A model generated the notes under the pieces. That model made no database searches. It saw only the letters and a list, made by a program, of their open reading frames with translations, and was not told the origin of the DNA. Source: an uncultured Gammaproteobacteria bacterium (GTDB lineage: Bacteria; Pseudomonadota; Gammaproteobacteria; Chromatiales; Chromatiaceae). Taken from it: DNA of 26,689 nt. A program made the position numbers and the translations under genes. How positions within the stretch are numbered: position 1 is the first letter of the stretch; every line of letters begins with the position of its first letter. Location: assembly GCA_965602975.1 (NCBI GenBank), contig CBFDBF010000001.1, positions 1-26,689 of the forward strand, read 5' to 3'. This document shows positions 15,226 to 19,008 of the stretch, piece after piece.

Positions 15226-16629
<1,404 letters not shown>

Positions 16630-17076
16630 TTAACCCTGATTATTGGGTGGCCAGTTTGCAGTGTTGATCTCTGATACATACTTTAAGAACTCAGCAATGG
16701 CTGCGAGCTCATCATCAGAGAAGTTGAACTGGGGCATACTACGGCGCCCAGGAATGCCGTTGACTGGGCGGGATTTAATAAATCCTGCAATAGCCTCTTT
16801 GGAACCACCGAAGCGGGTGTATACATTACCCAGCTCAGGTGCATAGTAGCCACCCTCTCCGAGCAGAGTGTGGCAGCCGATACAGTTGTTTTTTTCCCAT
16901 AGCGCCTTGCCTTGAGCAATTTGAGGGCCTAATTCTCCCTCAAGAGCTGCACGGTTGTCCCGACTTGGTAGCTGGTTAATCGTATCGAAGGTTAATGCAA
17001 GAAACAGTAAAAAGAAAAACGCGGTACCACCGTAGAAGATGTTCCGCGCCATAGATTTAGTAAAAGTTTGAGCCAT
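16630..17076 (-). CDS. norC: Nitric oxide reductase cytochrome c subunit NorC
   Basis: MAQTFTKSMARNIFYGG, TM anchor, WEKNNCIGCHTLLGEGGYYAPELG, GRRSMPQF, WPPN. GGGGGAG RBS supports ATG 17076 rather than 17109. Confidence 0.96.
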   Translation of the reverse strand: MAQTFTKSMARNIFYGGTAFFFLLFLALTFDTINQLPSRDNRAALEGELGPQIAQGKALWEKNNCIGCHTLLGEGGYYAPELGNVYTRFGGSKEAIAGFIKSRPVNGIPGRRSMPQFNFSDDELAAIAEFLKYVSEINTANWPPNNQG

Positions 17077-17143
17077 ATCAACTCCCCCGTTAGTATTGTG
17101 CCTCGGCACCTCGTATTAAACTCTGTCTGGTATGGTGCAGGCT

Positions 17144-17157
17144 TTGATCTATATCAA
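17144..17157. promoter_or_regulatory. FNR/DNR/NnrR-type binding site upstream of norC
   Basis: Perfect TTGAT-CTAT-ATCAA. A minus-strand -10 TTTAAT at 17120-17115 places the box near -41.5/-42.5 (class II geometry). Confidence 0.88.
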
Positions 17158-17199: not shown

Positions 17200-17448
17200 C
17201 ACTGCTGTCCCATTTAGCTGCGACACCATAAACATAACTTGTTGTTACATAGGCGCTTATTAGCACTGTTCTTTGTTTAGAACATCAAATGCAAATAAAG
17301 AGCATTCCTTCTCCCTCAGGGACCTCGGTACCCCCCTTGAGGGGTGGAAGGATAGGATGAGGGGGTAAATAAATCAAAGCCTTAGCTTTTTAAATCCCCT
17401 CACCCCAACCCTCTCCCGGAGGGAGGGGTAGTAAGTGGGACAGCAATG
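17200..17448. mobile_element. 249 bp MITE with 17 bp terminal inverted repeats and 9 bp target-site duplication
   Basis: Left TIR CACTGCTGTCCCATTTA (17200-17216), right TIR TAAGTGGGACAGCAATG (17432-17448; 15/17 match); flanking direct repeat AGTTGAAAC at 17191-17199 and 17449-17457; no ORF. Confidence 0.82.
17305..17428. repeat. REP-like CCCCTCACCCCAACCCTCTCCC inverted-repeat unit nested inside the MITE
   Basis: TCCTTC...GAAGGA and TGAGGGG (17358-17364) / CCCCTCA (17396-17402), followed by CCCTCTCCC-GGA-GGGAGGGG. Confidence 0.7.
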
Positions 17449-17608
17449 AGTTGAAACCCTTTTAAATTATATTGCTTAGCAGAATAATGGTGCATTTTAC
17501 AGCTGAATCAATGAGTTGTATTATGTAGCGCTATGGATTGCTGGCTCCGGATAATCGGTGTAGCAGGGGGGGGCAATTTTTAATAATATTTTGATAGTTG
17601 GTATAATT

Positions 17609-18451
17609 ATGGGTAATTTAAACAAATATCTATTAATAAATATTTTAATTAAATTTCCTGTTGGTTTTGGGTGGGCAGATACGGTGGAGGTGCAGTTACC
17701 GCCATCTACGTTATCTCAGTGGTATAAGCCACAGAGTGAACGCCAGCTTTGGCTGCATAATATGTTCAAGTTGCGGCGGGAGATGCAGGCAGTGCAAGAG
17801 TACAGTGCTATCAAGGATCAGCCACACTTGCAGAAATGGACAGTACGTTTAGTAAGCCACTACCAGAAGATTGCCGAGATGGTGCCAGAGTGGGAGGATG
17901 AGCTAGAGCTTGAGTGGGCAGAGAGGCTACTGCTTGCAGCAGAAAGAGGGGATTTCAGGCTCACGGATAAGGCGGTGCGCAAGATAGACGGGAGTTGCAA
18001 GTCATGCCATCGGGAGTATCGGGCAGTGGCTGCTGCTATGTATCGTACCCCTAACTTCCATGGGGTAAAAGTCAAAGATAGTGTTACTCTGCAGGAGTGG
18101 GAGTATGGCGAGTTTATGCAGACGCTTATCACCCTGGTTAATCAGGTCAAGATTGCATCTGAGGATGATCGGTTAAAGGAGTCTCTGCAGGCGTTATCCA
18201 GTCTTGAGGTACGACTACAGGAGTTGGGAGAGAGCTGTGTCTCTTGCCATAAGGATGATGCTTCCAGAGAGAGGATACTGGGGGCAGAGATGGTGCGGAA
18301 ACTGGGAGAGCTTAGGGTTAGCCTCTCATCTGGGGATAAAAAGATGGCAGGGCGTAAGTTGGGGGCTGTGGCAGTACTAACTTGTGCCAGTTGCCACGGT
18401 ACGCACCGTACACTCTATGATTTGAGAAATATACTTAACTCCGTGGATTAA
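17609..18451 (+). CDS. Tri-heme c-type cytochrome, predominantly helical (cytochrome c'-like heme motif context)
   Basis: Three CxxCH motifs: CKSCH (17996-18010), CVSCH (18236-18250), CASCH (18383-18397); probable N-terminal signal ending GWA-DT. The start (17609 ATG vs 17591 TTG) is uncertain. Confidence 0.8.
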   Translation: MGNLNKYLLINILIKFPVGFGWADTVEVQLPPSTLSQWYKPQSERQLWLHNMFKLRREMQAVQEYSAIKDQPHLQKWTVRLVSHYQKIAEMVPEWEDELELEWAERLLLAAERGDFRLTDKAVRKIDGSCKSCHREYRAVAAAMYRTPNFHGVKVKDSVTLQEWEYGEFMQTLITLVNQVKIASEDDRLKESLQALSSLEVRLQELGESCVSCHKDDASRERILGAEMVRKLGELRVSLSSGDKKMAGRKLGAVAVLTCASCHGTHRTLYDLRNILNSVD

Positions 18452-19008
18452 GGAGCCTGCTTGGTGCGTTCGCTCCAGGCTTGCATGGTTTTTGGATGGC
18501 TGTTCCATAGCCCTCGCTCTTGAGTCGCAGCCGACTTCTCGTGCTCTGTTAACTGCTGTTTGAGCTCGGTTGGCAGGGGGTATCTATTCAATACTACGGC
18601 AAACCCATCCTCTACCATCGCTTCGCTCAAGGGGCGGCCAGCAGGGCTATACAGTATTGTGGGGATACGGCCATATTTGTCATGCGGTTGAAGCCCCCCC
18701 TCCAGAGTTACCCTTTGGCCGGGTGAGACCATGGTCTCAAGGTGTCGAGTGGCCTCCTGGCCAAGGTCGATTAGTGTAGCACTGGTTAGTCCCGTTCTCT
18801 GCCTGTCTCGTTGCAGCTTTGGATTGCCCACACTTTCAGGAGCATCTATTCCCATCAACTGGAGACGCTCTGGTTGGCCATCTATCTCTACTACAATGGT
18901 GTCACCATCTTCAACACTGATAACCGGGTAGTCTAGTTCCTTGCATATGCCAAAAGGGGCGTTTAGCAGGAGAATAGTTGCTAATAGAGAGGTTGATAGA
19001 TTAAGCAT
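18448..19008 (-). CDS. Thermonuclease (SNase-like) family secreted protein
   Basis: Signal peptide, VISVEDGDTI, GIDAPES, DKYGR, EAMVEDGFAVV, A...ERGLW. Confidence 0.85.
   Translation of the reverse strand: MLNLSTSLLATILLLNAPFGICKELDYPVISVEDGDTIVVEIDGQPERLQLMGIDAPESVGNPKLQRDRQRTGLTSATLIDLGQEATRHLETMVSPGQRVTLEGGLQPHDKYGRIPTILYSPAGRPLSEAMVEDGFAVVLNRYPLPTELKQQLTEHEKSAATQERGLWNSHPKTMQAWSERTKQAP

Follow-up and report, generated by a model that had tools for sequence, protein, structure and literature searches.

A tri-haem cytochrome gene beside norCB

The window analysed in this study is the whole stretch of 26,689 nucleotides at positions 1 to 26,689 of contig CBFDBF010000001.1 (assembly GCA_965602975.1), from an uncultured gammaproteobacterium of the Chromatiaceae. 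We examined a gene on its forward strand (17609-18451) that encodes a protein of 280 amino acids with three haem-attachment motifs, here called the tri-haem cytochrome. The ATG at 17609 was taken as the start, in agreement with the N-termini of homologues; the full open frame (17591-18451) has an alternative TTG start at 17591. Residues 1-23 (17609-17677), MGNLNKYLLINILIKFPVGFGWA, read as a Sec-type signal peptide with predicted cleavage after G-W-A and before DTV. The signal peptide contains no lipobox Cys, and the aligned homologues carry typical AxA signal peptides.

An earlier note on this DNA, made from the sequence without database searches, had placed the gene divergent from norCB, and this proved correct. 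norC (16630-17109, likely ATG at 17076) and norB (15226-16614) occupy 15226-17109 on the reverse strand and belong to the order norCBEF-norQ-(DUF4870)-norD. The other side of the gene is occupied by a convergent gene for a secreted SNase-family nuclease (18448-19008, reverse strand), a zinc-ribbon protein gene, molybdenum-cofactor genes and napCB. The genome's own nirS, nirF, di-haem peroxidase (CCP) and multihaem/cytochrome b genes were found on other contigs of this 85%-complete metagenome-assembled genome (MAG).

The earlier note had also counted three CxxCH motifs with long predicted helices, and these were located at residues 130-134, 210-214 and 259-263. The haem 1 motif is CKSCH (C130, C133, H134; 17996-18010), followed by a cytochrome c'-like xxYR. 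The haem 2 motif is CVSCH (C210, C213, H214; 18236-18250), and the haem 3 motif is CASCH (C259, C262, H263; 18383-18397), which forms one feature with His266 (18383-18406). By our own estimate, about 0.001 motifs of this kind would be expected by chance in 280 residues. All three motifs were invariant in 99 of 99 aligned homologues, at identities down to about 20%. The invariance indicates that the gene is real and that the motifs are not chance occurrences.

The likeness of the first motif to the C-terminal haem helix of cytochrome c', suggested earlier, was confirmed. Pfam matched residues 102-138 to PF01322 (Cytochrom_C_2) with 45.9 bits against a cut-off of 26.5, a match to the last helix of the profile only. 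The best sequence matches in PDB were the cytochromes c' of Rhodobacter capsulatus and Alcaligenes, and the Pfam match and the PDB alignment together show that IDGSCKSCHREYR genuinely resembles the cytochrome c' haem helix. A specific family for the protein was not found in NCBIfam. Homology to NorC, NorB, NorQ, NorD, NorE or NorF was likewise not found with Pfam and NCBIfam, and neighbouring open reading frames (ORFs) take the nor roles, in keeping with the earlier statement that this is not a named nor component.

Tandem duplication of a class II four-helix bundle

An AlphaFold2 (AF2) model was built with the 99-sequence alignment as input. The model had a mean predicted local distance difference test score (pLDDT) of 95.3 and a predicted template modelling score (pTM) of 0.81, and it was almost wholly helical. 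It consists of two helical bundles (residues ~35-145 and ~150-278), and every CxxCH falls inside a long helix or at its end. The N-terminal class II four-helix bundle, which carries haem 1 and the PF01322 match, was delimited at residues ~28-148 (17690-18052), with AF2 helices at 47-67, 71-91, 101-113 and 116-145. The C-terminal four-helix bundle (residues ~150-278; 18056-18442) carries haems 2 and 3, with haem 2 attached between helices B' and C'.

The two halves were then compared as profiles. The hhalign match between the N half and the C half had a probability of 98.5% and an E-value of 2.7e-15, and it paired Met52 (in WLHNMF) with Met170 and C130xxCH with C259xxCH. This profile-profile match shows that the tri-haem cytochrome is an internal tandem duplication of a class II four-helix-bundle cytochrome. 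In the first half, the loop that joins helices B and C contains the motif M-V-P-E-W95 (17879-17893), in which W95 is invariant, and this loop is the counterpart position of C210xxCH in the second half. Haem 2 was therefore added in the second copy.

The four-helix layout with a CxxCH at the C-terminal end of helix D was seen in residues 40-143 of the model, and the same layout recurred in 150-278. The usual single haem per polypeptide of ~125 residues was not found; the protein has three CxxCH motifs in 280 residues and two bundles. The description of a multi-haem c'-like protein in the earlier note therefore stood as far as class II (c' family) homology is concerned, but the protein is built not from three c'-like units but from two bundles, the second with two haems. 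Three family members (P0167, P0178 and P0188; 539-610 amino acids) are of double length with two matched stretches each, and they may represent a further duplication to a six-haem, four-bundle protein.

Comparison with known cytochromes

Searches with the whole model gave no close counterpart. Foldseek against PDB returned no match at E <= 0.001; the resemblance seen, to c', b562 and unrelated four-helix bundles, was confined to single domains. No useful match was found in AFDB Swiss-Prot, and the hits among AFDB clusters and in the ESM Atlas were all unnamed proteins of this family. With VIA-align, domain 1 gave Z 10.9 to 1bbh and 10.7 to 1cpq (21% identity), with a root-mean-square deviation of 2.2-2.5 A over ~100 residues. 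The C-domain gave Z 10.4 to 3u8p (a b562-EGFP fusion), 9.5 to 5yo4 (b562RIL) and 10.2 to NaxLS (6r6n). Z values of 10-11 are common to many unrelated helical bundles, so they were not used to choose among c', b562, NaxLS and PsbQ.

Cytochromes c' (PF01322; Alcaligenes xylosoxidans 1E83, Rhodobacter capsulatus 1CPQ, Allochromatium vinosum 1BBH) share the fold, the terminal CxxCH and the xxYR, and both kinds of protein occur in denitrifiers. Cytochrome c' itself is a monohaem protein of ~125 residues, usually a homodimer, with a five-coordinate haem in a hydrophobic distal pocket, whereas the tri-haem cytochrome is a 280-residue tandem with three haems and a Met, Lys or His candidate for every sixth position. 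The low-spin cytochromes c556/c554 (1S05) and E. coli b562 have the same fold, in which an axial Met from the beginning of helix A is paired with a His close to where helix D ends. By position, Met52 and Met170 are candidates for that axial Met, and JGI labels homologues 'cytochrome c556'; however, c556, c554 and b562 are single-domain, monohaem proteins.

The tetrahaem cytochrome of photosynthetic reaction centres (PufC; 8K5O chain C, 1PRC chain C) likewise repeats a unit of helix, turn and CxxCH, and its haems are ligated partly by His/Met and partly by His/His. Two consecutive haem segments of these proteins were matched by the C-domain profile at E 1.1e-5, a weak, short and motif-driven match. 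PufC has four haems, where the tri-haem cytochrome has three, is docked on the reaction centre and has another overall fold. Photosynthesis genes were not seen in the homologue contexts examined. NaxLS (Kuenenia Kusta0087/0088; 6R6N) is an NO-binding heterodimer of paired class-II-like c-haem bundles linked to N-oxide metabolism. It consists of two separate monohaem chains, its haems are His/Cys-ligated, and its Z of 10.2 is no higher than that of unrelated helical bundles. The tri-haem cytochromes of Tenderiales were considered as a counterpart and rejected as c7-type and unrelated. As far as our full-text literature searches reached, a tandem or tri-haem class II cytochrome was not found described, nor was the gene in papers on Sedimenticola or symbionts. 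These results identify the protein as an uncharacterised tandem, tri-haem form of class II cytochrome c for which no named or solved whole-length counterpart was matched.

Candidate axial ligands of the three haems

Conservation of possible ligands was counted over the 99-sequence alignment. Met52 (17762-17764), the candidate sixth ligand of haem 1, was Met in 97 sequences and Lys in 2. At Met170 (18116-18118), which aligns with Met52 and is the candidate for haem 3, 85 sequences had Met and 14 had Lys. His266, the candidate for the distal side of haem 2, was conserved in all 99. Lys, which is itself able to ligate haem, was the sole substitute at both Met sites, and a hydrophobic residue was never seen there. 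His50 (His in only 60 of the 99, otherwise hydrophobic) and Met91 (Met in only 79, Leu in 16, with hydrophobic replacements) were rejected as ligands. Exactly three well-conserved ligand-competent residues are present for the three haems: Met52, Met170 and His266.

In a superposition of model residues 164-266 on residues 1-106 of b562RIL, Met170 fell near Met7, the established axial ligand of cytochrome b562. His266 lies three residues past His263, the haem 3 ligand, on the same helix, adjacent to the haem 2 attachment site at the end of helix B'. From this placement, we infer that haem 2 is His/His-ligated and that haems 2 and 3 form a tightly packed pair. The conservation pattern suggests three six-coordinate haems of the c556/b562 kind, which fit better than a five-coordinate gas binder. 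The near-invariant helix-A Met52 and Met170 and the invariant His266 thus speak against the five-coordinate, c'-like NO-binding haem of the earlier note, and c'-like binding of nitric oxide (NO) appears less likely.

Monohaem cytochromes c' (CycP) trap NO for cell protection or hand-over. A protein of this kind would bind or buffer NO: a five-coordinate or labile-Met haem would trap the NO released by NirS and either protect the cell or pass NO to cNor. The homology of domain 1 to cytochromes c' in sequence and fold, including the CxxCHxxYR proximal motif, favours such a function, as does the likeness of the C-domain to NO-binding NaxLS, although that Z is non-discriminating for helical bundles. 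In addition, some true cytochromes c' have a non-coordinating Met at this site, and Met ligands can be labile. However, a conserved residue able to act as a ligand is available to every haem (Met52, Met170 or its Lys, and His266), and the hydrophobic replacements expected of a mere distal plug were not seen at these sites in the 99 sequences. Three haems with a close pair, with H263 and H266 on one helix, also suit electron transfer over gas storage. We therefore regard NO binding or buffering as unlikely. The protein would be of greater interest if one of its haems did bind NO.

A related proposal is a soluble NO-handling enzyme, in which the c'-like haem of domain 1 would bind a ligand, Met52 being labile or leaving upon reduction, and would be connected to a relay of two haems in domain 2. 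Such an enzyme would act as a periplasmic NO scavenger or reductase alongside the membrane cNor in nirS-type denitrifying sulfur oxidisers. We consider this combination of functions distinctly improbable.

Linkage to denitrification genes

The genomic context was compared across 84 loci (83 fetched loci and the window), in which ORFs were called and clustered and the frequent clusters were named with Pfam from one representative each. The counts are floors because many loci are cut by contig ends. The earlier note had allowed that homologues might show no linkage to nor or denitrification genes, and this was not the case. Among the 68 loci whose flanks total 8 kb or more, 52 had a denitrification core marker (NirS/N/F cd1-type, NirJ, NirDLGH, NorC/B, NosD or NosZ) and 16 had none. 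A cd1-type gene lay within 5 kb in 40 of these 68 loci. norC was divergent within 1.5 kb in 17 of the 84 loci, including eight whose contig ends inside norC. Linkage is closer with nirS and the haem d1 operon than with norCB.

The arrangement differed among carriers. In the Sedimenticola type, as in the window, norC is divergent; the gene is convergent with an operon of SNase, nirN, nirJ, nirDLGH, nirF and cytochrome c genes. The convergent position beside SNase, nirN and nirJ was seen in about 40 loci. In tubeworm symbionts, norCB and a PSCyt1 cytochrome gene are followed by the divergent tri-haem gene and then, co-directionally, by genes for a multihaem cytochrome (PF11783) and a cytochrome b. 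Thiodiazotropha carries a co-directional string of nirS, an EB_dh-domain protein gene, a cupredoxin gene, the tri-haem gene and CCP. In Piscirickettsiaceae-like MAGs, the gene follows a Crp/FNR regulator, hemerythrin, di-haem cytochrome c, SenC-ZnuA and UbiA, and in two Sedimenticolaceae chromosomes hemerythrin, a Crp/FNR regulator and the tri-haem gene adjoin nirS. Crp/FNR regulators, hemerythrin, SenC and UbiA were recurrent neighbours. As judged from locus titles, the link to denitrification genes persists across these differing arrangements in several bacterial families, which argues for functional coupling and not inherited synteny alone. The evidence for the link is strong.

The neighbours also bear on the NO-binding proposal. 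The gene is located between genes for the NO producer (nir) and the NO consumer (nor), NO-response genes of hemerythrin and Crp/DNR type are among its neighbours, and one distant homologue lies near a cytochrome P460 gene, all of which would suit an NO-binding protein. Against it, the Thiodiazotropha loci already encode a separate 155-amino-acid c'-like monohaem in the nir operon.

This 155-residue protein is encoded between nirN and nirJ (L054:18471-18935; cluster c52_155, 8 loci). It has a weak PF01322 match (E 0.0019) and is possibly a true monohaem c' inside the haem d1 operon. In the distant homologue locus (L089:4787-8843), the gene encodes 276 residues and overlaps a downstream multihaem cytochrome gene (Cytochrome_C554-type) by 4 bp. 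A two-component system and the cytochrome P460 gene lie upstream, a hint of N-oxide chemistry in the wider family.

Some arrangements would suit a dedicated partner of one enzyme: a donor to CCP, which is translationally coupled to the tri-haem gene in Thiodiazotropha, an acceptor for NirN, the dihydro-haem d1 dehydrogenase whose gene ends the convergent nir operon, or a periplasmic partner of the multihaem/cytochrome b pair of tubeworm symbionts. The tri-haem gene overlaps CCP by 4 bp in one Thiodiazotropha locus (L060), and the order cupredoxin, cytochrome, CCP occurs in about 15 loci. The order cytochrome, PF11783 multihaem, cytochrome b was found in 7 loci, and the convergent position near nirN would point to NirN. 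However, for each candidate, the carriers that have it next to the gene are a minority, and convergent neighbours do not share a transcript. None of the candidates is adjacent in the window; the genome's CCP and multihaem/cytochrome b pair were located on other contigs. Dedication to one such enzyme is thus quite unlikely in our view.

The EB_dh protein (ethylbenzene-dehydrogenase gamma-like, haem b; 766-929 amino acids) is encoded directly after nirS and before the cupredoxin in many islands (L060:6633-9422; cluster 'EBdh766' in 29 loci, e.g. L026:15579-17879). To our knowledge, no role in denitrification has been described for it. Eight Sedimenticola contigs from different assemblies (L007, L014, L016, L017, L020, L024, L038 and L040) all break inside norC, just upstream of the tri-haem gene, so that only the first 80-180 bases of each locus belong to it. 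This points to either another, nearly identical copy of norCB or a repeat on which assembly fails.

Family distribution and co-occurrence with cd1 genes

The family comprises more than 1000 proteins at E <= 1e-3 in 90% clusters and 199 clusters at 50% identity, and 335 stretches in a one-genome-per-species collection encode a relative. Where homologues are named, the names are only 'cytochrome c', 'cytochrome c556', 'Cytochrome C'' and 'hypothetical protein'. Carriers include Sedimenticola and other Sedimenticolaceae, symbionts of tubeworms (Lamellibrachia, Escarpia, Ridgeia), Candidatus Thiodiazotropha, Thiotrichaceae and Thiohalomonadaceae, among others; chemosynthetic symbionts of lucinid and thyasirid clams are also among them. 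Almost all are sulfur-oxidising Gammaproteobacteria. The Atlas clusters suggest further relatives in Aquificota, Nitrospinota and Myxococcota.

Among 400 Gammaproteobacteria sampled across families, 23 carried the gene. Genes of the cd1 family (PF02239) were present in 23 of 23 carriers compared with 48 of 377 non-carriers (13%), counts that are descriptive in that the genomes are related and independence is overstated. In this sample, the family was found only where cd1 nitrite-reductase genes occur.

The gene could instead encode a general periplasmic cytochrome, for example of sulfur oxidation or microaerobic respiration, whose position in the islands reflects co-transfer and not function. 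The predominance of sulfur oxidisers among carriers agrees with this idea, as do the distant relatives in housekeeping or other redox contexts and the 16 of 68 well-flanked loci that lack a denitrification marker. The cd1 genes of all 23 carriers, set against 13% of non-carriers, argue against it, as does a link that persists through several local arrangements in different families. Furthermore, the Thiodiazotropha gene stands in a co-directional string headed by nirS. A general cytochrome is accordingly very unlikely.

The cd1 matches of carriers and non-carriers differed in strength. The best PF02239 match had an E-value of ~1e-116 to 1e-122 in 17 of 23 carriers (~390-410 bits in those with a place row listed), compared with E <= 1e-141 (~470-530 bits) in 40 of the 48 non-carrier nirS genomes. 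One carrier (G168) was ambiguous, with 432 bits on a partial cd1 match, and the cd1 gene of the window's own genome was located at C24:9468-10988. Judged from these sequence matches, the tri-haem family may track a divergent NirS clade. This putative clade also carries a long conserved antisense ORF (cluster 'unk424').

A proposed periplasmic electron shuttle

How electrons reach the periplasmic denitrification enzymes has been mapped well only in a few model bacteria, in which cytochrome c550/c551, pseudoazurin or azurin serves as the carrier. We propose that the tri-haem cytochrome is a periplasmic electron shuttle of the denitrification module, and we put the probability of this reading at roughly 0.55. 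Tandem duplication of a class II four-helix-bundle cytochrome (c'/c556/b562 fold) would have produced a soluble periplasmic tri-haem protein. In each bundle, the last helix would still end in the ancestral haem site and helix A would still carry its Met; the second bundle would have acquired one more haem, placed between helices B and C and probably ligated distally by His266. Haems 1, 2 and 3 would all be six-coordinate, with His/Met, His/His and His/Met ligation (Lys in some members), and could together form a short electron wire.

The protein would be exported by Sec, matured by the cytochrome c biogenesis system and expressed together with the denitrification genes. In part of the family, this could occur from a DNR/FNR-controlled divergent region shared with norC or in the co-directional string headed by nirS. 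As for direction and partners, we infer that electrons would pass from a membrane donor (bc1 or a quinol-dehydrogenase cytochrome) to periplasmic reductases, with cd1 nitrite reductase, cNor through NorC, CCP and NosZ as candidate acceptors. Of the two alternatives in the earlier note, electron feeding fared better than NO buffering, with cNor as one of several candidate partners. Cytochrome c551 (NirM), NirC and pseudoazurin/azurin have the same proposed role, as periplasmic donors to cd1 NirS, cNor and CCP, and a nir-cluster location. They differ in having class I cytochrome c or cupredoxin folds with one redox centre each. Genes for cytc108 and cupredoxins occur in the same islands as the tri-haem gene.

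Several observations weigh against the shuttle. The AF2 model is haem-free, and the ligand roles were read from conservation and superposition. Some true cytochromes c' hold a non-coordinating distal Met, such as Met16 of Rhodospirillum molischianum cytochrome c', and Met52 is therefore not proof of six-coordination. A fixed operon with a single enzyme is rare for the tri-haem gene, so its location does not single out one partner. A denitrification context was not seen for six distant homologues (22-28% identity), and the functional proposal is for this reason limited to the subfamily at ~40% identity or more. FNR-type boxes upstream of the tri-haem gene were found in only 16 of 84 loci, an approximately 4-fold enrichment, and most of them are those of norC. 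The relatedness of the genomes behind the cd1 counts also reduces their weight.

If the shuttle is correct, the family would supply the carrier to NirS, cNor or CCP of these sulfur-driven denitrifiers, which is missing from models of how sediments and symbioses lose nitrogen by sulfide-coupled reactions. It would, moreover, give the class II fold its first multihaem, tandem form and inform how four-helix-bundle cytochromes evolve into wires.

The control region and the convergent nuclease gene

The intergenic region shared by norC and the tri-haem gene contains a perfect FNR/DNR-type box, TTGATctatATCAA (17144-17157), placed as for a norC promoter. An equivalent box, TTGACCTTGATCAA, was found upstream of norC in 9 of 10 loci with a complete divergent norC ORF; one further locus had a two-mismatch variant and one locus had none. 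In Sedimenticola, the norC-cytochrome intergenic region is ~150-210 bp, which places the box 125-175 bp from the tri-haem gene. These positions make co-regulation of the tri-haem gene with norCB plausible. A universal FNR/DNR box for the tri-haem gene was rejected on the count of 16 of 84 loci given above. A sigma-70-like promoter candidate, TTTACA-17-TATTAT (17496-17524, forward strand), lies ~85 bp upstream of the ATG and was identified by consensus match only.

The SNase gene was a conserved downstream neighbour in 43 of 84 loci. In these it is the conserved last gene after nirN, so that the haem d1 operon closes with a gene for a secreted nuclease. In the window, the stop codons of the tri-haem and SNase genes overlap within a TTAA palindrome (18448-18451), which leaves no space for a terminator. 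The norC-cytochrome intergenic region of the window measures 482 bp. Copies of positions 17347-17448 within it, ~79-81% identical, were found on two further contigs (C257 and C82) of the genome, and this repeat lengthens the shared control region to its 482 bp.

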